Assembly (NCBI GenBank): GCA_963807635.1
Contig: CAWEDJ010000016.1
Location: forward strand, 21,199-85,198
Length of the DNA stretch: 64,000 bases
Direction: 5' to 3'
From: an uncultured cyanobacterium
GTDB lineage: Bacteria > Cyanobacteriota > Cyanobacteriia > Cyanobacteriales > Microcystaceae
This document shows, piece by piece, positions 7,626-63,787 of the stretch (the first letter of the stretch is position 1; every line of letters begins with the position of its first letter). Made by a program: the position numbers and the translations under genes. A model generated the notes under the pieces. It made no database searches. It worked only from the letters and a program-made list of their open reading frames with translations, and had not been told where the DNA came from.

Positions 7626-8005
7626 TATTTTTATCTTTCCTCAAATCGTAAATTTAATTAATCAAATAGTAAAAAATGAGTTTGTCTTGAACTTTTCTTT
7701 TAATACTGCCATTTTCTCCAAGATACTCAACTTTTTCCTCCGTCAAAACACTGAATTAGACGGGTTCCAACAAAAACTTTTTACCGTAAAAACACTTAAG
7801 TATCGTCTGCCATCCCAGTATAACAATCTACGGATAGATCTACTGGCTTTAAAAGGAACAAAGTACAAAAAGCATACAGAGTGAAAAATAGACGAATGAA
7901 CAGAAATCTTAGCTAATTCGTTGATTTACCCCAATAATTAGTCTAATTACCAATAACAAGATCGCGATCGCATTTCAGAATTTCAAGCCACAAACAGCGA
8001 TCGCG

Positions 8006-8686
8006 CTATTTTAAAGCTGCAATTAGTAAATCAGCGACAGCCCCACCAGATGCTGGATTCTGCCCAGTAATAAGTCTCTGATCTTCAACAGCAAAAGCAG
8101 CCCAAGGCTCATCTGCTTTTTTGTAAATCGCCCCTCGTGCTACTAATTCGGTTTCTGTCAGGAAAGGAACAAATTGATCTAGTTCCGCTAGTTTCTCTTC
8201 CTCATTGGAAAAACCAGTAACTTCTTTATCTTTAACAAGCAACGATCCATTGGACAACTTGATATTCAACAAGCCTGCGGCACCATGACAGACCGAAGAG
8301 ACAAAACCACCCTTTTCATAAATTTTTTGACTGATGGATTGTAGTGTCTCATTTTCAGGAAAATCCCAGATCACCCCATGACCGCCAGTGTAATAGATCG
8401 CAACGTAGTCATCTGGATTCACTTCACTTGGTTTGAGTGTTGCACCAAGACGATTCATAAATTCTTTCTTCTGATACCATTCCCAATCAGTGGGATCTGC
8501 CATTTCAAGACTATGTGGATCAATGGGGGTATATCCACCTTCAGGGCTGACGTAATCAAGTTCATAACCAGCTTCTTCGACTTTCTTGACAAAGTGAACA
8601 GCCTCTCCAAGCCACAGACCAGTTGCTCGCTTCAGGTTTGGATACTTTTCAACACTGGTTAGAACGACAAGTATTTTCTTATTCAT
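8006..8686 (-). CDS. DJ-1/PfpI (Hsp31-like) class I glutamine amidotransferase-like protein
   Basis: KILVVLTS, TGLWLGE, GGHGVIWDF, VCHG nucleophile elbow and ITGQNPAS. Confidence 0.92.
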   Translation of the reverse strand: MNKKILVVLTSVEKYPNLKRATGLWLGEAVHFVKKVEEAGYELDYVSPEGGYTPIDPHSLEMADPTDWEWYQKKEFMNRLGATLKPSEVNPDDYVAIYYTGGHGVIWDFPENETLQSISQKIYEKGGFVSSVCHGAAGLLNIKLSNGSLLVKDKEVTGFSNEEEKLAELDQFVPFLTETELVARGAIYKKADEPWAAFAVEDQRLITGQNPASGGAVADLLIAALK

Positions 8687-8906
8687 GATGTCTTTTTCCT
8701 GCTTCACTTAGGCTTTATTAAGGTACTTAGATAGACAATAGCTCCAATATTTACCCAAGTAAAGTAGCTACCGTTTGGTAACTTGATGTCTATCAGGAAG
8801 CTACATTGATTGATGAGAGAGCTTGAATCTAGTCCCCTGGAAAAACTCCTATATCAAATCCCATAACAGTGGACGCTCTATATTTAACAAAGTATCTACG
8901 AGAGCA

Positions 8907-9035
8907 GCGATCGCACTCAATCATAAATCACAGGAAAGCGATCGCATTATTCAAAAACGATAAGACAGTGATCACAATTATCAATCACAAATAACAAAAC
9001 ATCGCATTTTCAAAAAAAACAAGATCGCGAGCGCA
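8907..9035. repeat. Array of five HIP1 or degenerate HIP1 units with about 30 bp period
   Basis: GCGATCGC 8907, GCGATCGC 8938, GTGATCAC 8968, AACATCGC 8998, GCGAGCGC 9027, separated by A-rich spacers. Confidence 0.7.
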
Positions 9036-9075
9036 CTCAGGGAGACTAGACGGCTTGTGAATGGCTTGGTATGAG

Positions 9076-11147: not shown

Positions 11148-12517
11148 ATGCGTTACAACCCAATTCTCGATGTCGATTCCTATAAAGCCAGCCATTGGTT
11201 GCAATATCCCCCGAATACCACCGCGATGTATTCCTACCTAGAGAGCCGAGGCGGAAAGTATCCCGCAACCGTCTTTTTTGGACTGCAATATATTTTAAAA
11301 GAATATCTAACCCGTCCCATTGAATCTTGGATGGTCGACGAAGCTGTTTCCTTCTTTGCCGCACATGGAGTTCCCTTTAATGAAGCAGGTTGGCGTTATA
11401 TTGCAGAGGATCTCAACGGTCGTTTATCCATTCGCATTTCTGCTGTCCCCGAAGGAACCGTTGTCCCTGTTCATAACGTATTAATGACCATTGAATCCAC
11501 TGATCCTCAGACTTTTTGGCTGGTTTCCTGGTTAGAAACCTTATTACTCAGGGTTTGGTATCCCACCACCGTCGCAACCCAAAGCTGGTATCTGAAAAAA
11601 TTGATTTATCAATCCTTAGTCAAAACTGCCGATGATCCCGATGGAGAAATTTCCTTTAAACTCCACGATTTTGGAGCGAGAGGCGTATCAAGTTGCGAAT
11701 CTTCGGGCATTGGCGGTATGGCCCATTTGGTTAATTTCAGTGGATCGGATACGGTGCAGGGCGTAGTTTATGCCAATCATTACTACAATCACCCGATGGC
11801 GGCTTTTTCCATTCCTGCGGCGGAACATTCCACTATTACGGCTTGGGGAAAGGAAGGGGAAGCATTAGCCTATCAAAATATGCTGGATCAATTTGCCAAA
11901 CCTGACAGTTTAGTGGCGGTTGTTTCCGATTCCTATGACCTCTGGAATGCGGTGGATCATCTCTGGGGCGATCGCCTCCGTCAAGCCGTGATTGATTCGG
12001 GCGCAACGATTATTATCCGTCCCGATTCGGGGAATCCTACGGAAATAGTCGGTAAACTTTTGCAACGATTGGATCATCATTTTGGTAGTGTGATTAATCA
12101 AAAAGGATATAAAGTGCTGAACCATGTGCGAGTAATTCAGGGAGATGGAGTCAACGAAGCGAGTATGTCCGAAATTTTGGCGAATATTGAAAATTTGGGC
12201 TTTAGTGCGTCTAATCTAGCCTTTGGGATGGGGGCGCGTTATTACAAAAATTGAATCGTGATACCCAAAAATTTGCCATCAAATGTAGTGAAGTTACGGT
12301 CAATGGTAAGGCGATCGCGGTTTATAAAGATCCCATCACTGACCCAGGTAAAACCAGTAAAAAAGGACGGTTAGCCCTGATCAAAACAGAAGTAGGTTAC
12401 GAAACGGTTGCTTCTTCTGGGGATGATCAACTGGTCTGTGTCTATGAAAATGGACATATTTTGCAAGAGCAATCCTTTGAGGAAATTCGCCAACGAGCCT
12501 GGTCGTTTGCAGTGTGA
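11148..12517 (+). CDS. nadV: Nicotinamide phosphoribosyltransferase; apparent 1-nt frameshift in a G run at about 12230-12234
   Basis: DSYKASH, LHDFGARG, PAAEHST, VSDSYD, IRPDSG and IQGDG motifs; AFGMG(G)ALLQKLNRDTQKFAIKC restored across the shift. Confidence 0.93.
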
Positions 12518-12537: not shown

Positions 12538-12666
12538 CTCTATAGAGTCCATTTGGTATCTTTCTCACAACCTTGGCCCAGTATGGATTAGAGAGAATTA
12601 GCCAAAATGCCTGTAATTCTTATCAGCTAAGCGTTACAAGAGAGATACCAAATAGGTTCTATAGAG
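12538..12666. mobile_element. MITE with about 27 bp imperfect terminal inverted repeats
   Basis: Left end CTCTATAGAGTCCATTTGGTATCTTTC; reverse complement of right end CTCTATAGAACCTATTTGGTATCTCTC. Confidence 0.75.
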
Positions 12667-15406: not shown

Positions 15407-16603
15407 GTGTATTTATCACGACTTACAATGGAAAAAATAAACATCATAAATTTTTTAATTCTCATATTTTCTATTCTCAGCATAGGGTCTATTGTTTATT
15501 ATCTTTATTCTTTGTATGCTACGGTTGTTTTTTTTAAGCAAAAGCAGGAAATTGATCCAGACTTTTCTGCTCCTCTCACAATTCTAAAACCTCTTTGTGG
15601 ATTAGATTGGGAAAGTTACACGGCTCTAACTTCCTTTTGTCAGCAGGATTATCCCCTATATCAAATTATCTTTTCAGTTCAAGATTCCCAAGATCCCAGT
15701 ATTGACATTGTCCAAAAAATACAACAGGATTTTCGTGATTTAGACATAGAACTAGTTATTCGCGATCGCGAAACGGCACTGGGCGATCGCGTCCTGGGCA
15801 TTAATCCTAAAATTAATAACCTTGCCAATGGAGCGACAAAAGCAAAATATCCGATTCTAGTGCTTTCTGATAGTGATATTCAAGTCGAAAAAGACTATTT
15901 AAAAACGATTATTCAACCTTTTGCTGACCCTTTAGTAGGGGTTGTTACTTGCTTATATAATTCCCTCACGGAAGGATTTTTGGCAGGTTTTGAAGCTCTT
16001 GATATTGCCTCTCAATTTTGTCCCAAGGTATTAACTGCTCGCCAATTGGAAGGCGTTAAATTTGCCTTTGGTTCAACCATTGCTATCCGTCAAGAAACCC
16101 TAGATAAAATCGGGGGATTTGCCAGCATTGGAGACTATTTAGCCGATGATTATCAATTGGGTTATTTACCGAGTCAAAATGGATATAAAGTTATTTTATC
16201 GCCCTATTTAGTAGAACATCGATTAGCAAATGTGACCTTCAATACATTTATCTATCGTCAAATTCGTTGGTTCAAATGTATCAGAATAGAGAGATTTTGG
16301 GGTTATGTCGGACTTATTTTTACCTATGGAATCATTAATAGTTTTGTATTATTATTACTGACTCAAGGTTCTCTTTTTGGATGGAGTATTTTTGGTTTAG
16401 TTTGGAATATTCGTTTTTTGACAGCTTATTTAATTACGATTAAATATTTGAAGGATTCTAACGCGAAGGAATTCTTTTTGTTAATTCCCCTACGAGATTT
16501 TGTTAGTTTTGGGATTTGGTGTTATAGTTTTATCGGAAATCAAGTCATCTGGCGAGACAAAACTTATCAATTATTACCGAATGGTCAACTCAGTCAATTA
16601 TAA
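15407..16603 (+). CDS. hpnI: Hopanoid glycosyltransferase HpnI (ceramide glucosyltransferase-like GT2/21)
   Basis: ILKPLCG, NPKINNL, SDSD, LADDY and RQIRW motifs. Confidence 0.88.
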   Translation: MYLSRLTMEKINIINFLILIFSILSIGSIVYYLYSLYATVVFFKQKQEIDPDFSAPLTILKPLCGLDWESYTALTSFCQQDYPLYQIIFSVQDSQDPSIDIVQKIQQDFRDLDIELVIRDRETALGDRVLGINPKINNLANGATKAKYPILVLSDSDIQVEKDYLKTIIQPFADPLVGVVTCLYNSLTEGFLAGFEALDIASQFCPKVLTARQLEGVKFAFGSTIAIRQETLDKIGGFASIGDYLADDYQLGYLPSQNGYKVILSPYLVEHRLANVTFNTFIYRQIRWFKCIRIERFWGYVGLIFTYGIINSFVLLLLTQGSLFGWSIFGLVWNIRFLTAYLITIKYLKDSNAKEFFLLIPLRDFVSFGIWCYSFIGNQVIWRDKTYQLLPNGQLSQL

Positions 16604-42383: not shown

Positions 42384-42457
42384 GCGATCGCGCCCAACAA
42401 TTTAGTTAGTCAAAATGTGCCAAAGAAACCGTAGAAATTTACAAAACAATCACATAA
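42384..42457 (+). pseudogene. 3' remnant of a GT4 gene starting at a HIP1 site
   Basis: GCGATCGC at 42384 reads DRAQQFS*SKCAKETVEIYKTIT*, a typical GT4 'RA..FSW..A..T..Y' tail with W mutated to stop. Confidence 0.7.
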
Positions 42458-45882: not shown

Positions 45883-46914
<1,032 letters not shown>

Positions 46915-46966
46915 AAATCAAAAAGAGCGATCGCGTTTTTTCTTTTTTCGGGAAAGGCGATCGCCG

Positions 46967-47716
46967 TTAGCCAATTTCTTCAGGATTTATTCCCAAAGAA
47001 AGCAAATGGGCCGCTAAAGCATCTGCTCGATGTTTTTCCTGTTCTGCACGAAATTGTTCCTGATCAGCACGATGTTTTTCTTGGTCTGCGCGGAGAGTTT
47101 CCTGTTCTGCGATCGCCATTTCCTGCAAAGCCACTTCCTGAGGAGTGGGAACTAATTCTCCCGTTGGCGTAAAATAGCGGAGTTTTCCTTCTTCAACCCC
47201 CAAATAAAGCTCTAATTCCTCGCTCCAACGTTTATTAGTATCTGTCAGGGGAATTTCTTGATAGTTATGACCCACTAAACGATAACCCATAAACTCCAGA
47301 CTATCGGGAGCAAACCAAAAATATTCAGGCGTTCTAAAACGGTCTTGATAGAGTTGTTTTTTGATGCCGCGATCGACATTTTCCGTACTTTCTGATAGCA
47401 ATTCGATAATTAAATTGGGATACTGTCCATCTTCTTCCCAAACCACCCAAGAAGCACGGGGATGACCGCTCACACCGTTAACGAGGAAAAAATCTGGCCC
47501 ACGAAAATCTCGATTTTTAAGTTGTTGACGACTAAAGTAGATCGTTAAATTGGCCCCAATAAAATAATCATTTTTTTCTCGCCAATACCACTCTAAAGAG
47601 GTGACGAGCAGGAGAAGTTGGAAATAATGTAGAGAGCTTGACCTTTCGGGTTCATCACTCATCAAAACACGGGCATCGGGCATTTTTTCGGAGAATTGTA
47701 GAGCCGTTTGATACAT
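46967..47716 (-). CDS. Uma2 family endonuclease-like protein
   Basis: RGPDFF, W..WEE...P.LIIELLS.ST, K..LY and TPEYFWF; C-terminal RADQE repeats. Confidence 0.92.
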   Translation of the reverse strand: MYQTALQFSEKMPDARVLMSDEPERSSSLHYFQLLLLVTSLEWYWREKNDYFIGANLTIYFSRQQLKNRDFRGPDFFLVNGVSGHPRASWVVWEEDGQYPNLIIELLSESTENVDRGIKKQLYQDRFRTPEYFWFAPDSLEFMGYRLVGHNYQEIPLTDTNKRWSEELELYLGVEEGKLRYFTPTGELVPTPQEVALQEMAIAEQETLRADQEKHRADQEQFRAEQEKHRADALAAHLLSLGINPEEIG

Positions 47717-47879
47717 GGGACTCCTCAAGCGCGGGGAAATGACTTAATCATAGCAATTTAAAAAGTCTTATTGTTAATTGGCTAAATACCTCAACTTGGA
47801 GAGTTTTATCCATAACCGAGCGATCGCGTTTGAAAATCAGATTCAGTCAGCGATCGCTTATAAATGTTAGGAATTGAAT

Positions 47880-50735: not shown

Positions 50736-50762
50736 AAAAAGAGGTCACAAAGACCCCCTTTT
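50736..50762 (-). terminator. Putative intrinsic terminator after apcC
   Basis: AAAAAGAGGTC-ACAAA-GACCCCCTTTT hairpin followed by a U tract on the minus strand. Confidence 0.6.
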
Positions 50763-50783
50763 ATCCAATTGAAGACAAAAAAA

Positions 50784-50987
50784 CTAAGCCAAACCCGTGT
50801 TAGCTCCAGGCTTTCCAGTAGCCAATTGAACCTTAATGATTTTTCCACCCATTTTCATAATCCGTTGCTGTTCACTGAACCAGTTATCATAGGGAACTAA
50901 TTTAGTGAAATAAGTATTTTGTAATTCGCGTTGTGTCCGAATACGAGTTTGGCTAGGAACACAAGCGGTAACTTTAAACATCCGCAT
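50784..50987 (-). CDS. apcC: Phycobilisome core linker ApcC
   Basis: MRMFKVTACVPSQTRIRTQRELQNTYFTKLVPY. Confidence 0.98.
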   Translation of the reverse strand: MRMFKVTACVPSQTRIRTQRELQNTYFTKLVPYDNWFSEQQRIMKMGGKIIKVQLATGKPGANTGLA

Positions 50988-51187
50988 GGGGTTAAGTTCT
51001 CCTTAAAAAAGTTGGGGGTCAAAAAATAGTCTAAATACGGCAAGGGTCGGGAGTCAGGGGGCAATACTAAACAGTCAAAACTCATCTCTTTTTAAATAGA
51101 TTTAAGCTTTCAACCGACTAGCACTCACTCTCTTACTCCCGAACCTGAATTATCAACAACGTTTAAGGGTTGCTAATAAGGAGTGTC

Positions 51188-51673
51188 CTAGCTTAAACCA
51201 GAGCTAATATAGTCTAAGTAAACACCCATTTCTTTACCTGCATCCGCACCGACTAAGCTAGCGGCAACTTCTTTGATTGCTTGGATAGCTTGAACAGTAG
51301 AGGAAATAGGAACACCTAAAGAATTGTAGGTTTCTTTCAATCCATTGAGAACACGCTCATCAAGGATAGAAGGATCGCCTGCCAACATTGCATAGGTTGC
51401 ATAGCGGAGATAGTAGTCGAGGTCACGGATACAAGCCGCATAACGACGGGTGGTGTACATATTGCCACCAGGACGAGTTACGTCAGAATACAGTAGGGAT
51501 TTGGCAACTGCTTCTTTAACGATGGTTGCTGCGTTAGCACTGATAACACCAGCCGCACGAACACGGAGTTCTCCAGTGGTGAAGTAGGCTTTTAATTTAT
51601 CTAATGCAGAACTATCCAGGTATTTGCCCTGAACGTCAGCAGAGTTGATTACGGAGGTAATTGCGTCTTGCAT
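51188..51673 (-). CDS. apcB: Allophycocyanin beta subunit
   Basis: [20 protein letters not shown] and [14 protein letters not shown]. Confidence 0.99.
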
Positions 51674-51754
51674 AGTTTTTTTGCTTCCTTAGAATGTTTC
51701 TTTGGGTAAAATTTGCTAAATAGAGAAGAATTTGAGCGTTGATAGCCAAAAGAC

Positions 51755-52240
51755 CTAGCTCATTCTTCCGATAACATAGTCGAAATAGCCAGCAGCTTCA
51801 GCCGCATCTTCAGCAGACATTAAACCAGAAGAAACTTCTTTCAATTCGCGGATACCTTGAGCAACCGCACCTACGTCAGTTCCCAAAGATTTGTACATTT
51901 CCCGTACACCGACTAAACCAATTTCTTCAATGGGGGTAACGTCACCAGCGACAACACCGTAGGAAACTAAACGAAGATAGTAGTCCAAGTCGCGCAGGCA
52001 GGTAGCCGCCATTTCTTCGCCGTAAGCATTTCCACCAGGAGAAACGATGTCAGGGCGTTTTTGGAACATGCGATCGCCAGCTTGTTTAACAATGGTTTCG
52101 CGAGCACCTGTGAGGGTTTCAGCGATCCGTAAGCGAGCGGCTCCAGAGGAGACAAAAGACTTGATTCTATCTAATTCGCCAGGGCTGAGGTAGCGGGCTT
52201 CCGCATCAGCATTCACGATTGATTTCGTGACGATACTCAT
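51755..52240 (-). CDS. apcA: Allophycocyanin alpha subunit
   Basis: [27 protein letters not shown] and [10 protein letters not shown]. Confidence 0.99.
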
Positions 52241-52495
52241 TGATGGATTCCTCTCAAAAAGTAAAAGTTATAGTTGGTCTTAAGTTAGACTTATTAACCG
52301 CGATCAGTTACCGACAAAGGTTAAAACTTAACATTTGTATTCAAGCAACCTGCCAAATTATTTTCGGGCATTGCGATCCCCTTCGTCGCGACTTCGTAAC
52401 AGTTTTTAACATTTCTTTTCAGAATTCCTCTTCTATCCACAACTCACTCTTGGAATGATCATGTGGGCTAATCGACAAAATTGACCTAAGTTGAC

Positions 52496-52849
52496 CTAAA
52501 TTAACTCAAAAAAGTGACACCCCCGACAAGGGCCAGTGGGATTCACCGCACACCGTAAAATTTCGGAATGGGCATTAAACCGACAGTGGGGATCACCGAT
52601 TATCCAGTGACTTTCCCATAAATTGAGTTCCGTAGGAGAAGAAGCAGATTGGACATGGAGCGAAATTTTACTAAGACGATAGCCACTCACCTTGTATTGG
52701 TAATGATGATGACGTTCCAAGACGGTGTAGGTTTGACCTTGAATTTCTAAATAATGACCTGGCTGCGGCATCCAATCAAGATGAATTTTAGCCAAGGTCT
52801 CTCGATTTGGGGCTAGGATTACCTCGGTCGGCAATAGCTCTGCTTCCAT
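52496..52849 (-). CDS. Conserved cyanobacterial protein with C-terminal Cys motif (DUF6464-like)
   Basis: VLERHHHY and IGDPHCRFNAHSEILRCAVNPTGPC..C. Confidence 0.75.
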   Translation of the reverse strand: MEAELLPTEVILAPNRETLAKIHLDWMPQPGHYLEIQGQTYTVLERHHHYQYKVSGYRLSKISLHVQSASSPTELNLWESHWIIGDPHCRFNAHSEILRCAVNPTGPCRGCHFFELI

Positions 52850-52967
52850 GTGTTGCGTTTTAGTAGAACTGGTTGGATTTCGGTTAGAATCTGAGTCTAT
52901 CTTAAACTAAGGTCTAATTTACACAAGAATCACTGTTACAGCAGTTTGTGGTTAAATCCCTTACAAG

Positions 52968-52996
52968 GTAAGGACATAATAGTATTATGTCCCTAC
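52968..52996. repeat. REP-like palindrome
   Basis: GTAAGGACATAATAGTATTATGTCCCTAC; relatives at 30203 and 63387. Confidence 0.8.
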
Positions 52997-53180
52997 AAAA
53001 ATTTGTCCGTGATCACAAGGAATTTGCTCTATTTATCGAAAAAGCAGATAAAATCAACGGTCTGGCTAGGCATTAAGCCGCCGAACGAGCATTGTCAGGG
53101 ATTTCTCGCTTTGACGATAATTGTAGAAAGAAAATAAAAAACAAGAAACTTGATGGAGATATTGTTCAATTTTCTGTCTT

Positions 53181-53951
53181 ATGAGAACTTCTGTTGCCCT
53201 TTTGTTGACGTTAGGGGGATTATTCCTGCCCAATTCTATTTTCTTGAATCAGGACAGTAAACCGATTCAGATTGCTTTGATTGGGGATTCTATCACCCAA
53301 GGACGCAGGGGTAATCCCGAACAAAATTTGCCTGCAACTATCAGTTGGCGTTACCCTTTTTGGCAAAAATTGGTCGATCAAAACATCAACGTTAATTTAG
53401 TGGGATCGAATCAATCAGGGTTTGAAGGCGATCCTCCTTGGCCAAATTACAAGGGAAAAGTATTTGATCGAGATCACGAAGCGCGTTGGGGGGCTTCCAC
53501 GGAAGAGATCATTGCCCAGTTATCGACTGGATTAACACGGTATACGCCCGATCTGGCCTTGATTTTACTAGGAACCAATGATGTTCGGATTGATCAAGCT
53601 TTGGGTAAAGAGACCGTTCAGGAAACCAAGGCGGATTTGATCAAGATGATTAATTTGTTGCGGCAAGATAATCCTGATGTGGTGATTGTTATTGGGGAAC
53701 CCTTTCAGGAGTGGGAACCTTTTCCAGCGATCGCCCTAGCATATCAACAAGTTGCCGCCCAACTGAGTACAGATCGCTCCCCGATTACGACGGTGAAAAC
53801 CCAGACAGATTGGATTAGTAATCCCGACCAAAAAGGGACTTGCACGGTGGATTGGGTTCACCCGAATATAAAAGGGGATGAAATGATTGCTGAAGCTTTT
53901 TATCAAGGGATTAAGCCTTATTTAAAACGTTTTAGCCATTCTTCGGACTAA
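53181..53951 (+). CDS. SGNH/GDSL hydrolase, exported
   Basis: IGDSITQG, LGTND and DWVHPN blocks. Confidence 0.9.
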   Translation: MRTSVALLLTLGGLFLPNSIFLNQDSKPIQIALIGDSITQGRRGNPEQNLPATISWRYPFWQKLVDQNINVNLVGSNQSGFEGDPPWPNYKGKVFDRDHEARWGASTEEIIAQLSTGLTRYTPDLALILLGTNDVRIDQALGKETVQETKADLIKMINLLRQDNPDVVIVIGEPFQEWEPFPAIALAYQQVAAQLSTDRSPITTVKTQTDWISNPDQKGTCTVDWVHPNIKGDEMIAEAFYQGIKPYLKRFSHSSD

Positions 53952-53964
53952 GGCAATCGCCCTA

Positions 53965-54162
53965 TTAAGCAGCAATTCCTTCCATTGTGAGTTGATTAAT
54001 ATCAGCCCTTTGGCTGGCGTGTTCCATCGTAATTGCACAAATTGCACCGTCTTCATCGAACTCTAGCAAGGTGTTTTCATCAAGGTCTTGGGCTTCAACA
54101 ATAGCCGCTTTTTTAAACTCAATATATAAGGTATCGGTATCTTTAAAATATTGGAGTTTCAT
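53965..54162 (-). CDS. DUF2283 family putative antitoxin
   Basis: MKLQYFKDTDTLYIEF...LLEFDEDG.I.AITME. Confidence 0.85.
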   Translation of the reverse strand: MKLQYFKDTDTLYIEFKKAAIVEAQDLDENTLLEFDEDGAICAITMEHASQRADINQLTMEGIAA

Positions 54163-54395
54163 GGTTTAAATCTTCTATCAAAAAATGCGTTGTGAATGGT
54201 TTCATTGCCAGGAAGAAGAACAACTCGAAGATACCGCCCCTCAGCTTCCATGATTTTTGCCCATATCCGAATTCTACCATCTGCCTGAATCTGGATTCGT
54301 TCGGGATTTTTTATCGCATAAGTGATCCATTCTTCTTTGATGGATAAACGATCTGGACGATTTCTCGTAGAGTCAAAATAGGCAGTTGTTTTCAA
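54159..54395 (-). CDS. Putative RelE-like/DUF4258-like toxin, translationally coupled to DUF2283
   Basis: Q.DGRIR.W..I....RYLRVVLL...TIHNAFFDR; ATGA-type overlap with the downstream gene. Confidence 0.7.
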   Translation of the reverse strand: MKTTAYFDSTRNRPDRLSIKEEWITYAIKNPERIQIQADGRIRIWAKIMEAEGRYLRVVLLPGNETIHNAFFDRRFKP

Positions 54396-54520
54396 GTTTC
54401 AATACGGAACAATATTTCAATATAGTTTAATAGAATCTTTGCCTATCTGATCGCCCCTTTAACCCTCAATTCTAAAAAAGTCTAAAAAAGCGATCGCAAG
54501 GCATTATTGACGGCTAAAAC

Positions 54521-55871
54521 CTAGCGTGCTACCAAGGATTTATCAGGTGAATTAGGGATTTCAGCCATCCGAGACGATTTTATTTCTCCTTCTCCCGTAA
54601 TCAGCCGCGCTCCCCGTCCCCTCGTAAAATAATTCCAGCCCCATTGCAACATGACAATCAGTTTATTGTCGAATTCAATCAGGTAGTAAACATGGGCCCA
54701 GACCCAAATCATCCAGGCGAGTAAGCCCGTAAATTTAGCAAATCCCAGGTCAACAACGGCTTTATTTTGACCAATGACCGCTAAACTGCCATAATCTACA
54801 TATTGAAAAGGACGAATGGTTTTTCCCGCCAGACGAGCAGGAATTAATTTGGCCAGATAGGTCGCTTCTTGCATCGCCACAGGGGCAACCCCAGGCAGGG
54901 GTTTATCTCCTTGATGGGAATAATTGGCTAAATCCCCTAAAACAAAAATATTGGAATAATTCGGCAGACTTAAATCGGGTTCCACCATCACTCGACCCAC
55001 TCGATCCAAGGTCGCTCCCGTACGTTCTGCCAGAATTTCTCCCATGCCCGACGCTTTTACCCCCGGCCCACAATACCGTATGGGAGGCAATTTGTTTGAT
55101 TTCTTCTCCTTGACGAACGGTAACGCAATCTTCGGTGATATTGGTGACAATACTTTTGGTTTGCACTGTTACACCCAGTTTAATGAGATCTTTCTCCGCT
55201 TTAGCCGATAAATCGGGAGTATAGGGGGGTAAAACTCGGTCTAATCCTTCGATCAATAATATTTTGGCTTCTGTGGTGTCGATATTCCGAAAGTTTCCCT
55301 TGAGCGAACTATGGGCAATTTCCGCGATCGCGCCTGCCAGTTCTACCCCCGTTGGGCCACCGCCGACAATGACAAAGGTTAACCAGGCTTGACGTTGAAC
55401 GGGATCGGTTTCCTTTTCTGCCGATTCAAAAGCGAGGAAAATTCGACGACGCATTTCGATCGCATCCTCAATGGTTTTCAAGCCAGGAGCCACCGTCCGC
55501 CATTGGTCATTGCCAAAATAGTGATGACTCACCCCCGTTGCCACAATCAACATATCGTAGGGAATTGGTTCATGATCTTTGAGAATTACCTGTTGGCGAT
55601 CGGGGTCAATATCCACCGCTTCGTCTAATAAAACTTGGGCATTGTGATGATCTCGCAGAACCACCCGCAGAGGGGAAGAAATATCAGCAGGGGAAAGGCT
55701 ACCAGTGGCGACTTGGTACAATAAGGGCTGAAAGAGATGAAAATTGCGTTTATCAATTAATTTAACGTCAACAGGACTATTTTTTAAGCCCTGGGCAGTA
55801 TAAAGTCCCCCAAATCCCCCGCCAATGATAACCACCTGGGGCTTTGTTGTTGAATCCTGATTTCTATCCAT
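54521..55871 (-). CDS. Type II NAD(P)H dehydrogenase (NDH-2); frameshift at about 55064
   Basis: GGGFGG, HLFQPLLYQVATG, GGGPTGVELAG, VLWA(A)GV, GDLA and PGVAPVAMQ. Confidence 0.93.
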
Positions 55872-56038
55872 AAAAGTGTTCCTCTGGCAAGGGGATAATC
55901 CTAACGATTTGTTACCAGCAACTATCCTACCAAGATTAGGATTCCAGGGGGTAACAATCACTACGAGTTAAGACGCGATCGCCAATTCCTATGACAAAAT
56001 AGCCCCAAGCATTATCAATAAATTAACTAATTAACTGT

Positions 56039-57319
56039 TTATAAAACAGGTTCGGGTGGAAAATTATCTTGGAAAGGGTTGGGCGAAGTAGGAGAGACAG
56101 CAGGAATCGGTAGGGCGTTTGGAGCCGTAACGGGGGCGGGAGGAATAAATTTTTGAGCTAAACTGCGGGGGGCTGGAACATCAAAAATTCCTCGAAAATC
56201 AGCTTTTCGTTGGGCAGTCGATTCAGGTGCAACATCCCACAATGTTTTGTAATAAAAAAACGAAACCCCCAGCCCACTAGCCTCTGCCGCCCGAACCTTT
56301 GATTGGATCAAGTTCATGGGAATCAGTTTTGTTTTCAATCCCGTAAGAATACCAACGGCGGTGGGGACTTTGGTTTTCGCTTCTTGGAATTCAGGACGAC
56401 CGAGGGGTTCTAAAAAACTCGATAAATCAGAACGATAGACTTGTACTACAAGTTCATCCACAATACCTTTTCGCACCCAATCGAGCCAATCTTGTAAATA
56501 GGTATATAACGCCAGCTTATAGGTTGCAGGGGAAACGGAAAAAAGGATATTGGGCTTGGTTTCCTTGATTTTTTTATTCAACTCAGTCATAAAAGCCGTA
56601 ATTTTATTAGCCCGCCACCGTAGCCAGGCTCCATCATTGGGATCACTGGGGGGATCTTTTTTGGTTTCTTGTTTATAAAGGGAAATGGTATAGGGATCAT
56701 AGCCAAATTCCTTGGGCAGACTCATGTGATCGTCAAACTGCACGCCATCTAGGTCGTATTGGTTAACGAGTTCCATGATTAGCTCGGTAATAAATTGTTG
56801 AACTTGGGGATGAAAGGGATTGAGCCAAACCACTTCTCCGACTCCGCCCACCCAGGTTTGACTGCCATCCTGGCGTTGAGTGACCCATTTGGGATGACGT
56901 GTCACCAGTTCCGAGAAGGACGGAGCCATGAAGCCAAATTCAAACCAGGGAATCACCAATAAGCCCCGACGATGGGATTGGTTAATCAGATCGGCTAACA
57001 CATCCTGACCCTGTAACCCCTTGGTGCTAAAGGGTTGAATGCCTTCTCGTTTAGCGACTTCACTTTCATAGAGGACATAACCCGAATTCCACACAACGGG
57101 ATAAAGGGTGTTTAAGTTAAATTGAGCCAGCAGATCGACGGATTCCTCTAGTTTGCGATGATCCATAAATCGGGTGGTATCGTTATTGGTAATCCAAACG
57201 CCGCGAATTTCTGGGTAAGTTTGCTGGGATTTCACGGCAGGAATCTGACTCATTAAGAAAATGACGATTAATGACAGACAAAATAGATGGAAGGGAAATT
57301 TCTGGAGTAATGTCTTCAT
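56039..57319 (-). CDS. Glycoside hydrolase-like family 10 (YddW/DigH-like)
   Basis: EIRGVW, IPWFEFG, LNPFHPQV, DGVQFDDH and QDWLDW. Confidence 0.88.
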   Translation of the reverse strand: MKTLLQKFPFHLFCLSLIVIFLMSQIPAVKSQQTYPEIRGVWITNNDTTRFMDHRKLEESVDLLAQFNLNTLYPVVWNSGYVLYESEVAKREGIQPFSTKGLQGQDVLADLINQSHRRGLLVIPWFEFGFMAPSFSELVTRHPKWVTQRQDGSQTWVGGVGEVVWLNPFHPQVQQFITELIMELVNQYDLDGVQFDDHMSLPKEFGYDPYTISLYKQETKKDPPSDPNDGAWLRWRANKITAFMTELNKKIKETKPNILFSVSPATYKLALYTYLQDWLDWVRKGIVDELVVQVYRSDLSSFLEPLGRPEFQEAKTKVPTAVGILTGLKTKLIPMNLIQSKVRAAEASGLGVSFFYYKTLWDVAPESTAQRKADFRGIFDVPAPRSLAQKFIPPAPVTAPNALPIPAVSPTSPNPFQDNFPPEPVL

Positions 57320-57517
57320 TAAAGTTTTTTATTCCGCTCAACTTAACGATCCCTAACTTATCGCATTGATTAGTAAACGTCAAAAGAGGGCTAGTCTTCC
57401 AATGAAAGGCGATCGCGCTTTGAGTCTCCCTGAAAAACTTAAAGGAATCAGCTAATCCACAACCTTACCATTAATCAACTATATTAAGAATAATTAAGAA
57501 TATTATTTTTTTAGCCT

Positions 57518-58781
57518 GTGAAAGCCCTCAAAGCCATTAAAGACCTAGACCCAAAGACCAAAAGAAATTTCCTAGCCCTATTTTCAACCGCTTTATTTTT
57601 TTGGATCGGTCTAACCACCCTACTGCCCACCTTACCGACCTATGCAGAAGATCTGGGAGGAACTCGCCAACAGGTGGGTTTTGTGATGGGGCCTTTGCCA
57701 TTGGACTGTTGGGGTCTAGGGTCTGGTTGGGACAAGTGGCTGATGAAAAAGGTCGCAAAATTGTCATCCTCATCGGTGCTTTTGTTGGTGCGATCGCGCC
57801 CTTGGGTTACCTAGCTGTCCACAATATTCCTGCTTTGATGGCGATTAGGGCATTTCATGGCATTAGTGTTGCGGCTTTCACGACGGGTTATAGTGCCTTA
57901 GTCGTTGATCTGGCTCCGATTAAACAACGGGGCGAACTGATTGGTTATATGAGTCTGGCTGTCCCTGTGGGGATGGCTCTCGGCCCTGCTCTCGGCGGTT
58001 ATTTAGCAGAATCGGCGGGCTATGTTCCTCTTTTTTTGACGGCGGGCGGGTTAGGATTAATGGCTTGCCTCATTGCTAATCAAGTTCAGGAGACCGTTCC
58101 TGCTCAGGGATTCTCAAGCAAAACAAAAGTTCATACCGCAGAAAATCGAAGTTCCTGGGAACTATTAAGTACGCCTTCTTTGTTGATTCCTTCCCTAGTT
58201 TTATTACTAATCGGACTGGTTTTTGGGAACTTAGCCACTTTTTTACCGCTTTTTATCCGAGAAATTCATCTCAATCTCAATGCAGGATTATTTTATAGTT
58301 TTGCCGCGATCGCGAGTTTTATTTCCCGTGTCTGGACGGGGCGAGCATCGGATCTCTATGGGCGTGGCGTTTTCATTAGTGGTAGTATTCTTTGCTATGT
58401 TTTAGCGATGATGATTCTGGCTTGGCCAATAGCCCGCAAATGTTTCTGATTGCCGCAACTTTAGAGGGCATTGGCGGCGGGGTTCTGATTCCTATGATTA
58501 TCGCCCTGATTTCTGATCGGTCTTCCAGCCATGAACGGGGGCGAGTGTTCGCGCTCTGTGTCAGTGGTTTTGATGTGGGAATCGCGATCGCGGGGCCAAT
58601 CTTTGGACTCTTGGGAGAAAGCCTGGGCTACCGAGGACTATTTGTTCTAGCCAGTGGACTTGCCCTACTCGCCTTTCTGCTATTTGGCAGTCAATCTAAT
58701 CCCAGTCTGACAACCTCCCTACGATTTGCCACAGGTAGGGGAAAAGACCGCTATGCAAAAGAGCAGACATCCCCTTTATAA
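57518..58781 (+). CDS. MFS transporter; frameshifts at about 57690 and 58425
   Basis: G.VADEKGRK and GRASDLYGR motif A; RAFHG; 12 TM helices spread over three frames. Confidence 0.88.
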
Positions 58782-58817
58782 AAAGGAAAATATCTGCTCA
58801 ATGGTCTTCTGCTCTAA

Positions 58818-58891
58818 CGGGCTTGGAGGGATTCGAACCCCCGACCTTCTGGTTCGTAGCCAGACGCTCTAATCCACTGAACTACAAGCCC
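58818..58891 (-). tRNA. tRNA-Arg (anticodon ACG)
   Basis: GGGCTTGTAGTTCAGTGGATTAGAGCGTCTGGCT-ACG-AACCAGAAGGTCGGGGGTTCGAATCCCTCCAAGCCCG cloverleaf. Confidence 0.97.
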
Positions 58892-59109
58892 CTATCGGTT
58901 TTCTTGACCGTAATCCAACTTACCATACTCCTGAAGTTTAAAGCAAGCAATTTTTTCAAACTTCCCAAGATTCCCACGATCACAACTTAAATTTATCGGT
59001 CAAATTATCGGTCAAAGGGCGATCGCGCTTTTCAATCAATTCAGCTAAAATCCTTATCAGGGAAGGAAAGCCGTATAATTAGGTTCGATTGATTGGGGAC
59101 TAGGACTAA

Positions 59110-59200
59110 TAGACATCTCCAAAAATTGAGTAAGGACAATTCATGAATTGCCCCTACCAGAGGTTTCAATCGATGCACTCCTGATTTCTGGAAATATCTA
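59110..59200. mobile_element. 91 bp MITE with an internal REP palindrome
   Basis: Ends TAGACATCTCCAAAAATT and reverse complement TAGATATTTCCAGAAATC; core GTAAGGACAATTCATGAATTGCCCCTAC. Confidence 0.75.
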
Positions 59201-60499
59201 ATGCGGACAGTCAAAAAAATCAAACAACTCGCCCTCTGGGGACTTTTCGGTTTATTGCTCAGTTGGCTTGTTAGTTGTCAGTCAACGCCCTCTAACCCAA
59301 CGGCATCAGGGGATAAGGGGGGAATTCAGTTCTGGACGATGCAACTCCAGCCCCAATTTACGCCCTATTTTACGGAACTGATTGGCAATTTTAAAACGGC
59401 AAATCCCGATATAACGGTGAAATGGGAAGATGTGCCTTGGGATGCCATGCAGAGTAAGATTTTAACCTCTATTTCTGCGAAAACGGCTCCCGATGTCGTT
59501 AATCTGAATCCCAATTTTGCTTCTCAGTTAGCAGGAAAAAATGCTTGGTTAGACCTGAGTAGTAAAGTTTCTCCAGACATTCAAAAACAATATTTACCCA
59601 AAATTTGGCAGGCCAATACCCTCAATAATCTGAGTTTTGGCATTCCCTGGTATCTGACCACCAGGGTCACGATTTATAATCAGGATTTATTAAAAAAAGC
59701 AGGCATCACCGCGCCGCCTGCGACCTACGAAGAATTAGCGAAAGTTGCGAAAACCGTTAAGGAGAAAACAGGTAAATACGCCTTTTTTATTACCTTTTCC
59801 CCAGGAGATTCGGGGGAAATATTGGAATCCTTGGTGCAAATGGGAGTCAAATTAGTAGATGAGCAGGGGAAAGCCGCTTTTGACACGCCCGAAGGTTTGG
59901 CCGCTTTTAAATACTGGGTTGATCTCTATCAACAGGGATTATTACCCCCCGAAGTCCTGACCCAGGGTCATCGTCATGGAGTGGAACTCTATCAGTCTGG
60001 TTCGACGGCGTTACTCTCATCTGGTGCGGAATTCTTGAAAACCATTGAGAAAAATGCGCCAACGATCGCCAAAGCCTCTGCCGCCGCCCCCCAAATTACG
60101 GGTAAAACAGGGAAGAAAAATGTAGCTGTCATGAATCTGGTAATTCCCCGCGACAGTAAACAAGCCGATGAAGCCCTAAAATTTGCTCTATTTGTGACTA
60201 ATGCCGATAATCAATTAGCTTTTACCCAGCAGGGCGGCACGTTGCCCTCCAATATCGAGGCAATTGAACGCTATATCGCAAAGTTAGAGAAAGAAAGTAG
60301 CGGTTCCTCGGTAGAACAAGCCCGAAAAGTCAGCGCAAGTCAACTCAAGGACGCTGAAGTTTTAATTCCACCGATGAAAAATTTTAATCAATTACAAAAG
60401 TTGATCTATGAAAATCTTCAGGCCGCCATGCTTAAACAAAAAACCGTAGAGCAGGCCGTTAAAGAATCTGCTGAAGCTTGGAATGCTTTGCAGTCTTAG
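59201..60499 (+). CDS. Sugar ABC transporter substrate-binding lipoprotein
   Basis: Lipobox LVSC, FWTMQL, APDVVNLN and IPWYLTT. Confidence 0.9.
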   Translation: MRTVKKIKQLALWGLFGLLLSWLVSCQSTPSNPTASGDKGGIQFWTMQLQPQFTPYFTELIGNFKTANPDITVKWEDVPWDAMQSKILTSISAKTAPDVVNLNPNFASQLAGKNAWLDLSSKVSPDIQKQYLPKIWQANTLNNLSFGIPWYLTTRVTIYNQDLLKKAGITAPPATYEELAKVAKTVKEKTGKYAFFITFSPGDSGEILESLVQMGVKLVDEQGKAAFDTPEGLAAFKYWVDLYQQGLLPPEVLTQGHRHGVELYQSGSTALLSSGAEFLKTIEKNAPTIAKASAAAPQITGKTGKKNVAVMNLVIPRDSKQADEALKFALFVTNADNQLAFTQQGGTLPSNIEAIERYIAKLEKESSGSSVEQARKVSASQLKDAEVLIPPMKNFNQLQKLIYENLQAAMLKQKTVEQAVKESAEAWNALQS

Positions 60500-60507
60500 A
60501 GGCTGAT

Positions 60508-63303
60508 TTAGGAAATTTTAATCACTTTCATCACTTCGTCCCCTAAATGGTTAATCACTTTGACGGCAATGCGGCCTGTTTCGGGTTTGGGGAAGGGACG
60601 AGAAAGATCGCTATGCAAAGTTTCCCAGGCTTCTTGGTTAATTTCGGTTTTCAGGGTGGTTTTCAGGGATTTATAGGGATCATTGGCTCCGAGGAAATAG
60701 GCATGGCGGACAAAGAAGCTTTCTTCGTTGTAATTGCTATCAATGAACCAACAGGCAATACCATCAGCCCCACTGGATTGGACTTCTCCTGATTTGGGAT
60801 GGAAGACATCTACGCCATGAATTTTAATTTGTAGCCGATCGCCGTCGAGTTTAATCATTTCTATATCAGGTTCCCCAAAGACAACAAAGAGATTGCCTTT
60901 ACCTGTATTTTTGAGGTCATCGGCCATGTGTAGATCGGCATTCATGCGAGCTTTGAGGATGGGAATACGGCCAAATCGGTCAAATTCGGCGGAGTAGGCA
61001 TCGTAGTTAAAGGCACAGGCGATCGCCACATCACATTGCTTTTCAGCCGCTTCATTGGCAACGGCCACCAGATCGGCACGGGATACGGTTCCAAATTCGG
61101 GGCCGATAAAGATTCCCGCTTTTTTCTCTTGATTGCTATCTTCTTCGAGGTAGCGACCTTCGGCACAAATATATTTACCTGCCCAAGGTTCGAGGCTAAG
61201 AAAGTTAATTTTGTTTTCTTTGTGGGCCTGTTGAACGCCTGCTGTTTTCAGGTTTTCGAGGATGATTTGATCGAATTGGGCATTGTCGGGATAGGGTTTG
61301 ACTTTTTTCAGTTGATTTGGGTCAATCAGGTTATCGTTTTCATCTACGATGAGGGTGCGATGGGGTGACAGGCTTTCGACGGTGAAGGGGCCAGCGACTC
61401 GCACAATATTTTTATCTTCGTAGGGTTTATCGTACAAATATTCTTGATCGGCTTTAGCAGAAATAGAGGCATCAATTTCTTTTTGTCGGGCGATGCGTTG
61501 TTGCCACCATTGTTGATGGAGTTTTTGGATTTTCTCTGTCCAATTGGTTTCGGGTTCGCGGGGGATTTCCCATTCTTCCCACTTTTTACCCGTTGCGGTA
61601 TTGAGGGCGACACGGAGCGGTTCTAGTTTGGTTTGATATTTCTCCCAAATGGTGTCAATGTCGGTATTATTAGCGATCGCTTTGAGGGTGATGTGGGGAA
61701 CTCGCTCATAGACGAATCCTTGACGTATATCGCCATAGGTAGGGCTTTGGCTAGGCAGGTTTTGACTGATTTGGGCTTCTTTTTGTTGACCTGCGGCAGA
61801 ATCGAGCAATAAATAGTAGGGATATTTGGCTCCCATGATTCTGGCACGGGCAAGAGCGAGGGCAACACGGGAGGTATCAATCGTGATCCAGCGTCTTCCC
61901 CATTGTTCGGCAACGTAGGCAGTTGTACCCGATCCGCAAGTTGGATCTAGGACTAAATCACCTGGATCGGTTGTCATTAAAATACAGCGTTGTACTAGCT
62001 TGAATGAAGATTGAACAACATATAGCTTTTCTTCCGAGCGACTACTTAAAGCAACATCATCCCAAATATTTCGGATTGGAATAACAGGATAATCATCATG
62101 GTAACGAATTATTGCTAAAGCCTTATCTCGTCCCACTATACGATCTGTCAAAGTTAATCTTTTCAAACCTTCAAAAGAAGTAGACCATCCTCTTGAACCA
62201 GCAGGCTTAAATCTCTTCCTTTGGAATTCAAATTCAAATCTCGAATTATCGCTTCCTGATTGTGATGTAACTTGATCAAATCGAAATAGACGACCTTTTC
62301 CTGACTTATATATTTCAACAGCTTCATTAATAGGAAAACTTTGTTTTCTCCCATCAGGAAAAAAAATCATTCTATAATCAATATCTGAACCAAGTTCTTT
62401 TATTTTAAAAAGTTGTCTATATTTTATGGAATCTCTATCTTTACAAAACCAAATTATATAGTCTGAAACAGTTGTCAATAATTCTGTTGTTTGTGAACTA
62501 GTTTTTTGAGCAGTAACCATGCAAACAAAATTTTCCTCTCCAAAAACCTCATCCATCAAAGCCCTAACTCGATGAACATTTTCATCCCCAATTTGCACAA
62601 AAATCGAACCGCTTTCTGTTAACAATTCCTTTGCTACCGTCAAGCGATCTCTGAGATAGGTCAAATAAGAATGAATCCCATCCCGCCAAGTATCCCGAAA
62701 CGCCTTAACCTGCTCAGGTTCACGGGTAATATGCTCAACATTACCATCCTTCACATCACGGCTCGTCGTTGACCATTGAAAATTAGAATTAAACTTAATC
62801 CCGTAGGGCGGATCAAGATAGATACATTGCACCTTTCCCCGTAACCCTTCCCGTTCGGACAAAGAAGCCATCACCTGCAAACTATCGCCCAAAATCATGC
62901 GATTAGTCCAATTCCCTTGATGCTGATAAAAATCCGTCGCCCGTGCATCCTTTGGAAAACCATTAAAATCCGCAAATAAGCCTAATTGTTGCGTTTCAAT
63001 CTTCTCCGCTTTCCGTTCCGAACTTTCCCGAATTAAATTTTCTAACAATACCTTCGGATGAATTTTTTCTTGAATATAAAGGGGAGGAGCCGACACCACC
63101 AAATCGGTATAATTATACGCATCTTTCCCCCGCCAAACTAACTGCGGATCTTTATTTTGACTACGGCGATCGTAAGCCACTTGAATGGGGGTTTTATCTT
63201 CCATTTTCATCACCGACTGATGCTCTGCTGTGGGAATATTTGTCCGTTTTGCCTCGTCATGGGTAAAGGTTTCAATAGACTTTTTTGATTCAGATTTAGC
63301 CAT
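60508..63303 (-). CDS. Type III-like restriction-modification Mod DNA methyltransferase (amino-MTase, beta class)
   Basis: NRMILGDSL, IYLDPPYG, VLDPTCGSGTT and RIAVKVIN; variable target-recognition region between the motifs. Confidence 0.9.
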   Translation of the reverse strand: MAKSESKKSIETFTHDEAKRTNIPTAEHQSVMKMEDKTPIQVAYDRRSQNKDPQLVWRGKDAYNYTDLVVSAPPLYIQEKIHPKVLLENLIRESSERKAEKIETQQLGLFADFNGFPKDARATDFYQHQGNWTNRMILGDSLQVMASLSEREGLRGKVQCIYLDPPYGIKFNSNFQWSTTSRDVKDGNVEHITREPEQVKAFRDTWRDGIHSYLTYLRDRLTVAKELLTESGSIFVQIGDENVHRVRALMDEVFGEENFVCMVTAQKTSSQTTELLTTVSDYIIWFCKDRDSIKYRQLFKIKELGSDIDYRMIFFPDGRKQSFPINEAVEIYKSGKGRLFRFDQVTSQSGSDNSRFEFEFQRKRFKPAGSRGWSTSFEGLKRLTLTDRIVGRDKALAIIRYHDDYPVIPIRNIWDDVALSSRSEEKLYVVQSSFKLVQRCILMTTDPGDLVLDPTCGSGTTAYVAEQWGRRWITIDTSRVALALARARIMGAKYPYYLLLDSAAGQQKEAQISQNLPSQSPTYGDIRQGFVYERVPHITLKAIANNTDIDTIWEKYQTKLEPLRVALNTATGKKWEEWEIPREPETNWTEKIQKLHQQWWQQRIARQKEIDASISAKADQEYLYDKPYEDKNIVRVAGPFTVESLSPHRTLIVDENDNLIDPNQLKKVKPYPDNAQFDQIILENLKTAGVQQAHKENKINFLSLEPWAGKYICAEGRYLEEDSNQEKKAGIFIGPEFGTVSRADLVAVANEAAEKQCDVAIACAFNYDAYSAEFDRFGRIPILKARMNADLHMADDLKNTGKGNLFVVFGEPDIEMIKLDGDRLQIKIHGVDVFHPKSGEVQSSGADGIACWFIDSNYNEESFFVRHAYFLGANDPYKSLKTTLKTEINQEAWETLHSDLSRPFPKPETGRIAVKVINHLGDEVMKVIKIS

Positions 63304-63342
63304 AATTGATAATTAATAAGTAGAAAAAACGAATAAAACATA

Positions 63343-63414
63343 ATGAGGATTTAACAGTGTTAAATCCCTACGAAGAAAAGATTTGTGTAGGGACATAATA
63401 CCATTATGTCCTTA
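63343..63414. repeat. Two adjacent REP-like palindromes
   Basis: GAGGATTTAACAGTGTTAAATCCCTAC and GTAGGGACATAATACCATTATGTCCTTA. Confidence 0.7.
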
Positions 63415-63430
63415 GCCCACAGAAGTTGAT

Positions 63431-63787
63431 TAGGTTCTAACATTAAGGCGATCGCTATTTCAGACATTCCCAATCCTCTTCATCAACAATAGGATTAACA
63501 ATATCTCCGAAAATCTCAAGCTCTCCTGCTTCTGGTATAGGAAAAGTGCGGTATTGAGTCGGTTTTTCCTGTGGCTCATTAAGGACTGTCACAATCAAAC
63601 GAGCATGATTAAATTCTGGCTTTTCTCCAAGCCATTGAACTTGACCATTTTCATAAATCGCTTCATAACTTTTTAACATTTTTTTACTCCTATAAATTTT
63701 AGATTTAGAATGGATGGAGATCAAGAAAATTTGATGTTAACTTGCTTATAGATGATCAGGAATAGGTTCTAACATTAAGGCGATCGC
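63431..63787. repeat. Perfect 25 bp direct repeats ending in HIP1
   Basis: TAGGTTCTAACATTAAGGCGATCGC at 63431-63455 and 63763-63787. Confidence 0.92.
63455..63679 (-). CDS. Small antitoxin-like protein (AF2212/DUF104-like)
   Basis: MLKSYEAIYENGQVQWL..KP and GDIVNPI..EDWE; RBS AGGAG. Confidence 0.7.
   Translation of the reverse strand: MLKSYEAIYENGQVQWLGEKPEFNHARLIVTVLNEPQEKPTQYRTFPIPEAGELEIFGDIVNPIVDEEDWECLK

Follow-up and report, generated by a model that had tools for sequence, protein, structure and literature searches.

The 64,000-nucleotide stretch analysed here (the window), from an uncultured freshwater cyanobacterium of the family Microcystaceae, raises the following question: is HIP1, the 8-base palindrome GCGATCGC, a point at which genes are joined to and lost from the genome? 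A sequence-only reading of the window had noted HIP1 at the borders of four accessory segments, three of them within longer direct repeats, and had proposed that HIP1, often in doublets about 30 bp apart, serves as an att-like core for the integration of small cassettes. There are 78 HIP1 sites in the window and 4,758 in the source genome (G000; 4.03 Mb scanned, 94% complete), i.e., 1.18 per kb, with a mean gap of ~850 bp between neighbouring sites. At this density, every gene has a HIP1 nearby, so closeness by itself is no proof.

Alignment breakpoints were scored against one close relative of the same genus, G004 (alignment identity 94-96%), of which 2.18 of 4.6 Mb was covered, the longest contigs being chosen; the breakpoint and indel tests rest on this single, about half-covered comparator, and the events are unpolarised, each being either a gain or a loss. 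The 455 alignments yielded 817 usable ends, of which a sharpness filter kept 697 and removed 120. Seventeen of the 697 sharp ends were flush with the outer edge of a HIP1 common to both genomes, while simulated random breaks, scored in the same manner with a simple ungapped scorer rather than BLAST, predicted 1.1, an approximately 15-fold enrichment (simulated rate 0.0015-0.0016 per end; Poisson p 6e-15). The unfiltered set gave 21/817 flush ends. In total, 24 of the 697 ends fell within 0-3 nt of the outer HIP1 edge, and at 17 of these 24 the outer sides had no sequence in common beyond HIP1, which was also the most frequent terminal 8-mer at sharp breakpoints. These data support HIP1 as a true junction site for rearrangements. 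The same pattern could in principle arise if selection kept HIP1 in fast-changing intergenic DNA and alignments merely stopped there: of 1,951 single HIP1 sites compared in the two genomes, 1,800 are conserved, and 72% of the alignment ends are non-coding. However, random simulated breaks, scored alike, show only ~1.5-fold snapping to HIP1, and neither the filled/empty pairs nor the HIP1-to-HIP1 joint described below can come from alignment ends. Such an artefact is largely refuted, and we give it very little credence.

Another important issue is how much of the natural gain, loss and replacement of DNA passes through HIP1. Eight of the 145 pure indels between G000 and G004 were HIP1-bounded, or nine with one case found by hand. 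Five were micro indels of 21, 21, 21, 29 and 35 bp and three were gene-sized; all eight have two HIP1 around the insert, one copy often being a base off, and one HIP1 at the empty site. Each of the three gene-sized indels has one copy a base off: a 719-bp indel with two small ORFs read as an antitoxin and a PIN toxin, a 1,839-bp indel with a small antitoxin-like ORF and a transposase, and a 4,975-bp indel of mixed cargo with transposases, bearing a 37-bp repeat that begins at HIP1. The case found by hand is a 649-bp indel inside a doublet that carries a BrnT/BrnA-like pair. All four gene-sized indels (649-4,975 bp) are thus bounded on both sides by HIP1 or a near copy of it, and three of the four carry small toxin-antitoxin-type genes, these cargo names being a reading of the ORFs rather than scan results. 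Some inserts are flanked by repeats of 28-37 bp that end at HIP1. Among replacements, 24 of 193 had HIP1 at one end and none had it at both ends under a strict test; two showed a decayed HIP1 slightly inside the second end. The remaining indels mostly resemble insertion sequences and MITEs, elements that have ends of their own. The share of events due to HIP1 is thus genuine but a minority one, and in most of them HIP1 marks a single end. The proposal of HIP1-bounded cassettes stands in so far as filled/empty pairs exist elsewhere in the genome, often with toxin-antitoxin cargo, but as a description of pure indels in general it covers only the small fraction given above.

These counts bear on a passive explanation, according to which HIP1 is simply the commonest GC-rich 8-mer and is used in illegitimate recombination or slippage with no HIP1-specific protein. 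HIP1 supplies 4-5% of chance 8-bp matches and 24-43% of GC-rich 8-mer pairs, and one-sided junctions dominate, as in homology-facilitated illegitimate recombination. Unweighted, however, passive microhomology predicts ~0.5% HIP1 events, because only 11 of 106 indels of at least 60 bp carry any repeat of at least 8 bp, whereas ~4% of indels and 12% of replacements were observed. There is also little additional outer homology at HIP1 ends, and transformation depends on methylation in a laboratory strain, as stated in bioRxiv 10.1101/2024.09.10.611283. We consider the passive explanation the main rival of the reading preferred below, though the less probable of the two.

Longer repeats at HIP1 are a related matter. 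Nine of 900 non-coding HIP1 pairs lying 300-3,000 bp apart have at least 18 bp in common (0.08 expected); several flank toxin-antitoxin-like genes, as judged by ORF reading, and several are duplicated gene ends containing HIP1, which passive microhomology would accommodate. At two loci of G000 (C98:48922-50521 and C93:65924-66461), gene 3' ends that contain or end at HIP1 are repeated two to three times around toxin-antitoxin-like pairs, and it looks as if insertion restores the target end. A further observation concerns units of 21 bp with HIP1 on one side and a decayed copy on the other, found in G000 at C36:61120-61150, C39:65523-65536 and C71:70158 and in the window at 15762-15790. Some of these units are tandem; they form a sequence family, are present or absent between close genomes, and a 24-bp case occurs as well.

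Are HIP1 junctions also seen at the segments of the window itself? The features read from the sequence were all recovered there: direct repeats at 7955/9018, 46925/47818 and 63431/63763, HIP1 at 42384, gene stops at offsets of 1, 2 and -1 bp relative to HIP1, and doublets at 7964/7997, 8907/8938, 46927/46957 and 47820/47850. Relatives compared at these loci were G001-G005, all of the same genus, and for some loci G014. The accessory DJ-1/PfpI gene (8006..8707, minus strand; Pfam PF01965) lies between HIP1 sites at 7997 and 8907, with none inside, and has no DNA match in G001-G005 or G014. On its left is a doublet of two HIP1 sites 33 bp apart (7964..8004), the outer of which, at 7997-8004, is the recombination junction; on its right, an array of five HIP1 or decayed HIP1 sites in ~30-bp steps (8905..9037) contains the repeat copy at 9018. 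The 18-bp direct repeats at 7955 and 9018 differ by one mismatch, so the claimed repeat stands, but the claimed HIP1 at this border does not: the 9018 copy reads GCGAGCGC, and its counterpart in G004 is an intact HIP1. The latter genome retains the left doublet and diverges 3 nt outside it, being joined at the outer HIP1 to DNA that in G000 adjoins another HIP1 (C16:20506). The two sites of this HIP1-to-HIP1 joint have 11-12 bp in common, more than HIP1, a point in favour of passive microhomology. A homologue of the right-hand array, with four exact HIP1 and one decayed, is located at a different G004 locus (C54:1191-1324), and the match begins 2 nt before HIP1 8907. The junction at 7997 and the start of this match make 7997 and 8907 the working borders of the DJ-1 segment, and both of them fall between the 18-bp repeats. 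In three close metagenome loci, the match is lost near 7800, ahead of the doublet.

The glycosyltransferase remnant (42384..42457, plus strand), the last 74 bases of a gene that we take to be of the GT4 type from a sequence motif rather than a domain scan, starts exactly at HIP1. G004 has an intact 427-aa glycosyltransferase gene with the same HIP1, and the match starts flush at 42384. The adjoining polysaccharide cluster (36867-42383; 5.5 kb, 29% GC), with methyltransferase and glycosyltransferase genes, has no HIP1, and in G004 its place is taken by a different, longer cluster. The other end of the replaced cluster lies in an ABC-transporter gene near 36866, not at HIP1; the GT4 case is a one-sided replacement. 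Elsewhere in the window, nested duplications of 127 and 150 bp surround DUF4351, nucleotidyltransferase and DUF29 genes (34293-36328) and end at HIP1 34422/35255 and 35440/36288. A HIP1-poor stretch (20612-22042) holds a gene with DACNH and a DisA-type diadenylate cyclase, a possible nucleotide-signalling or defence gene.

The Uma2-family nuclease-like gene (46967..47728, minus strand; Pfam PF05685) is placed between two 30-bp doublets, one between hemF and Uma2 (46927..46964), whose outer HIP1 is a junction, and one between Uma2 and ilvB (47820..47857), identified by its sequence. The 14-bp direct repeats at 46925/47818 are weak evidence, as 5% of doublet first-arm pairs have at least 14 bp in common. 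Uma2 occupies the same place in G004 and, as its 3' end, in G003, the two closest relatives, which disagrees with its supposed accessory nature at this site; G001, G002 and G005 have other DNA after hemF. G003 also has another Uma2 copy (C332), which adjoins a different gene, matches exactly up to HIP1 46927 and stops matching at 47788, short of the doublet beside ilvB.

The fourth segment carries an orphan antitoxin-like gene, previously called AF2212-like (63455..63724, minus strand), which has homologues in 15 of 41 genomes and matched no Pfam family. The 25-bp direct repeats at 63431 and 63763 are exact and far beyond chance (null 2.5e-5 per pair). The right copy (63760-63787) lies in a hicB-like remnant (63749..63913, minus strand; PF15919, E 3.9e-5, below the cut-off), while the left one (63428..63455), by its translation, is a partial hicB copy joined at HIP1 to what were the first four codons (MSEI) of a PIN-type toxin, now lost. 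Homologues of the antitoxin elsewhere are followed by PIN-type genes, one of them starting with MSEI, and G005 has a full hicB-hicA pair at the position of the remnant, with only the right copy of the repeat and not the left. The repeats are hicB coding DNA, a duplicated piece, and not an att pair; the left one, as we read it, is a HIP1 joint made by duplication. Next to this gene, the window encodes a 931-aa DNA methylase (60508-63303) without a partner gene, and in G005 an ORF resembling a restriction subunit lies close to this antitoxin gene.

A fifth cassette was found at 53953..54497 (minus strand), where a DUF2283 gene and a 78-aa ORF of no assigned family form a toxin-antitoxin-like pair, with decayed HIP1 at 53953 and 54447 and HIP1 at 54490; an 84-87% identical gene pair occurs at another G004 locus (C173:4045-4535) with exact HIP1 at both ends. 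Two further HIP1 sites behave as junctions. At 55975..55982, a patch of ~100-150 bp is replaced in relatives, flush in G004 and with the joint at 55982 in all four metagenome runs, and at 57409..57416 homology with relatives stops, flush in G004 and with the listed contig pieces ending at 57416 in three of the four runs. The metagenome contigs with these junctions come from lake and runoff samples, and they probably record the same events as G004 rather than independent ones. Over 44001-64000, among the 15 of 66 joints listed for contigs of the four runs (likeness 85), none skips Uma2, the gene pair near 54 kb or the AF2212-like gene. Likewise, neither G001-G005 nor an exact-pattern scan of the metagenome contigs yielded an empty site for the window cassettes. 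HIP1 junctions thus hold at all four segments first described (DJ-1, Uma2, GT4 and the AF2212-like gene) and at the fifth pair, but the reading of the four as clean integrations is not supported: no empty site was found for any of them, GT4 is one-sided and the AF2212-like case is a hicB duplication. Nor do the data support the view of the longer repeats as att sites. Abutting stops are likewise no signature: genome-wide, 25 of 3,891 ORFs end at -1 to +2 of HIP1, against ~8 per position further out.

Other variation in the window includes MITE-like families with many copies in relatives (~4563-4712, 12540-12664, 59105-59205 and 63313-63416), which insert independently of HIP1. Several core genes are apparently split by single-base frameshifts (11148-12517, 25776-27726, 30340-31730, 45883-46914 and 54521-55961); since one-base indels are seen at the corresponding places in contigs of relatives (46343 and 46776), the window frameshifts are probably assembly errors.

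Is there, then, a dedicated site-specific recombinase that acts at the doublets? Those of ~30 bp form a family scattered through intergenic DNA, close to gene 3' ends: 55 such ends lie within 60 bp of the 86 doublets, and 195 of 1,115 non-coding HIP1 (17%) sit in doublets. Their AT-rich spacers vary from 17 to 29 bp and resemble one sequence family, and the arms carry HIP1-NTTT facing inward (T frequencies 0.68, 0.89 and 0.84). Doublets as tandem duplications were rejected as the main source, with only 10/90 resembling the flank (null 5%), and so were strand-specific terminators or RNA hairpins, the sense strand being unbiased (29 vs 26). Spacer capture of the Cas1 type was considered as a possible source too; the spacers, as said, resemble a single family. 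As proposed earlier, doublets are special at junctions: one stands on the conserved side at 8 of the 24 near-flush breakpoints, above their share of non-coding HIP1, with the break at the outer HIP1 (p ~0.02 at a 15% rate). Together with the inward arms, the preferred length, the family-like spacers and the 28-37 bp repeats that end at HIP1 on either side of some inserts, this enrichment would fit att-like sites served by a trans-acting recombinase, in effect an integron without an array. Yet the att sites of tyrosine and serine recombinases have a fixed spacer with the crossover inside, whereas here the spacer varies and the junctions are at the outer HIP1; moreover, 16 of the 24 junctions use a lone HIP1, some within genes, and inner pairing of the doublet halves is no better than that of mixed halves (3.2 vs 3.3), i.e., there is no attC-like co-varying hairpin. 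Six tyrosine-recombinase (PF00589) hits were obtained in the genome, none on the window's contig and none linked to HIP1, and their neighbourhoods contain no cassette array. Integron cassettes, moved by IntI at attC, resemble the present ones in their small, promoter-poor cargo, often toxin-antitoxin pairs, and in the imperfect inverted repeats at their bounds, but here there is no integrase beside the sites, no single-locus array and no conserved attC fold, and the possible junction sites number in the thousands. A dedicated recombinase acting at doublets is, in our judgement, improbable. Four of the six PF00589 hits lie with transposases at the end of one contig (C28:104000-114000) and encode proteins that look unlike those of the host; this stretch may be foreign or mis-binned.

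The spacing of HIP1 sites provides a different kind of evidence. Taking the expectation per bin from the 150-180 bp baseline (56 pairs), G000 has 2 HIP1 pairs at 9-19 bp, 107 at 26-36 bp and 11 at 42-52 bp; the suspected ~30-bp peak is real, and control palindromes in G000 show neither the gaps nor the peak. By ORFs that a crude script predicted, most pairs of the peak lie in non-coding DNA, and coding DNA has the gaps too. The gaps were seen in all five same-genus genomes and in G014, and the peak exceeds the baseline in G001, G003, G004 and G014 (421 pairs, 115 expected) and is absent in G002 and G005. Other families show mild depletion at 9-19 bp and are mostly flat at 42-52 bp. Among 201 genomes across the phylum, 8 of the 54 with a baseline of at least 59 have less than 0.3 of the expected 42-52 bp count, the ratios being calculated by hand. 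Three genomes of the genus g18 (G137, G161 and G198) have no pairs at 9-19 and 42-52 bp and one to three at 26-36 bp, where ~21-28 are expected per bin, so that nearly no pairs occur at any distance examined up to 52 bp; two of them have 1 and 5 pairs at 58-68 bp (26 and 28 expected). In the g52 genomes (G149, G188 and G206), short-range pairs are reduced to 0.05-0.4 of expectation, and G215 is grouped with the g18 and g52 genomes as a case of short-range depletion. The g18/g52 pattern is a short-range HIP1 exclusion zone without doublets. On the simplest reading, this zone is clade-restricted and has been partly refilled in the source lineage by the doublet family. Under passive microhomology, the gaps need a separate cause, e.g., a mismatch-repair ratchet. 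No short-range HIP1 spacing gap was described in the literature searched, which took in few journals behind subscription and main texts only; the supplementary files of PMC5861425 may be relevant here.

What is directly seen, then, is flush junctions, filled/empty pairs, one HIP1-to-HIP1 joint, genes relocated between HIP1 ends and spacing gaps. The reading we prefer, with somewhat better than even confidence, is that HIP1 rather than the longer repeats is the joining point, and that a host factor cuts or nicks the methylated palindrome, after which the ends rejoin. Any two HIP1 ends could be rejoined, in either orientation. Resolution of both ends at HIP1 would lead to the gain or loss of a small cassette; more often, HIP1 would serve a single end, ordinary homology or a different break would settle the other, and a replacement would result. 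The incoming DNA probably arrives by natural transformation, and the ~30-bp doublets near gene 3' ends would offer safe, reusable joints. That small toxin-antitoxin genes persist as cargo is probably due to their size, which suits the distance between adjacent HIP1 sites, and to their resistance to loss. The gaps at 9-19 and 42-52 bp likely reflect a protein that acts at HIP1, through either its footprint or its repair tract. Two C5-methylase loci make a CGATCG-type methylase plausible in the source genome; their neighbourhoods contain no candidate joining enzyme. Enzymes of the MspJI type cut at a distance from a methylated site; cuts of this kind were rejected because the junctions are flush. 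More tentatively, the clade might possess a HIP1-directed cut-and-join machine with a ~30-bp footprint that uses several thousand methylated palindromes as cassette joints, builds the doublets and arrays, inserts toxin-antitoxin genes with HIP1-anchored duplications of 28-37 bp and makes pairs at 9-19 and 42-52 bp intolerable.

Recombination at HIP1 itself is already known from laboratory cases: a HIP1-bounded smtB deletion (Gupta 1993, as cited in PMC13756078), excision between HIP1 sites (Robinson 1997) and plasmid recombination in Synechococcus PCC 7002 (Akiyama 1998), the last two as related in PMC13756078, PMC4390886 and PMC9239245. Those cases have in common with ours the 8-bp core, the crossover between two HIP1, the single HIP1 left at the empty site and the lack of a known catalyst; they are single events, whereas here natural cassette gain or loss, relocation and one-sided replacement are seen genome-wide. 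Within the same body of literature, no genome-scale study of HIP1 at natural breakpoints was encountered. The natural HIP1 indels contrast with a statement in PMC13756078 that HIP1 does not introduce indels in alignments. The same article relates, second-hand, that gel-shift assays gave no HIP1-binding complex in one species, which counts against a HIP1-acting host factor. According to bioRxiv 10.1101/2024.09.10.611283, methylated HIP1 raises transformation more than 100-fold, independently of addAB.

In Nostocaceae, a repeat of 21 nt named SDR5 is found inserted within HIP1 (Elhai 2008, via PMC4390886 and PMC5861425), and PMC5861425 gives it as reported only in that family. The three 21-bp indels found here are similar in leaving a single HIP1 at the empty site and in having HIP1 and a decayed copy at the unit ends; they differ in occurring outside Nostocaceae, and the likeness described is one of unit length and position. 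The doublets of 26-36 bp exceed the SDR5 unit in length and are variable and rich in A and T. In homology-facilitated illegitimate recombination, as described in PMC6382021, one end is anchored by homology and the other is joined at a few common bases. This pattern of one anchor and one microhomology end would fit GT4 and the 24/193 replacements. The process is open to any short match, whereas the events described here favour a single methylatable palindrome of fixed sequence, which can be used at both ends. The mismatch-repair ratchet for HIP1 gain (Elhai 2015, PMC4390886) and the HIP1 periodicity of 18-94 kb, analysed in bins of at least 25 bp (Xu 2018, PMC5861425), likewise deal with non-random spacing and imply a protein acting at methylated HIP1. 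However, they concern scales of ~1 kb and tens of kb, while the gaps described here lie at 9-70 bp and are clade-restricted, with the ~30-bp peak in one sub-clade.

For 30 years it has been an open question what HIP1 does, and these data provide genome-scale natural evidence for HIP1 as a joint in gene gain, loss and replacement. Forbidden and preferred HIP1 spacings of tens of bases, in some clades only, represent a sharp new constraint, from which a direct assay and a phylogenetic search for the protein involved can be derived. Should the joint prove enzymatic, HIP1 would also be a natural landing site for engineering cyanobacteria.
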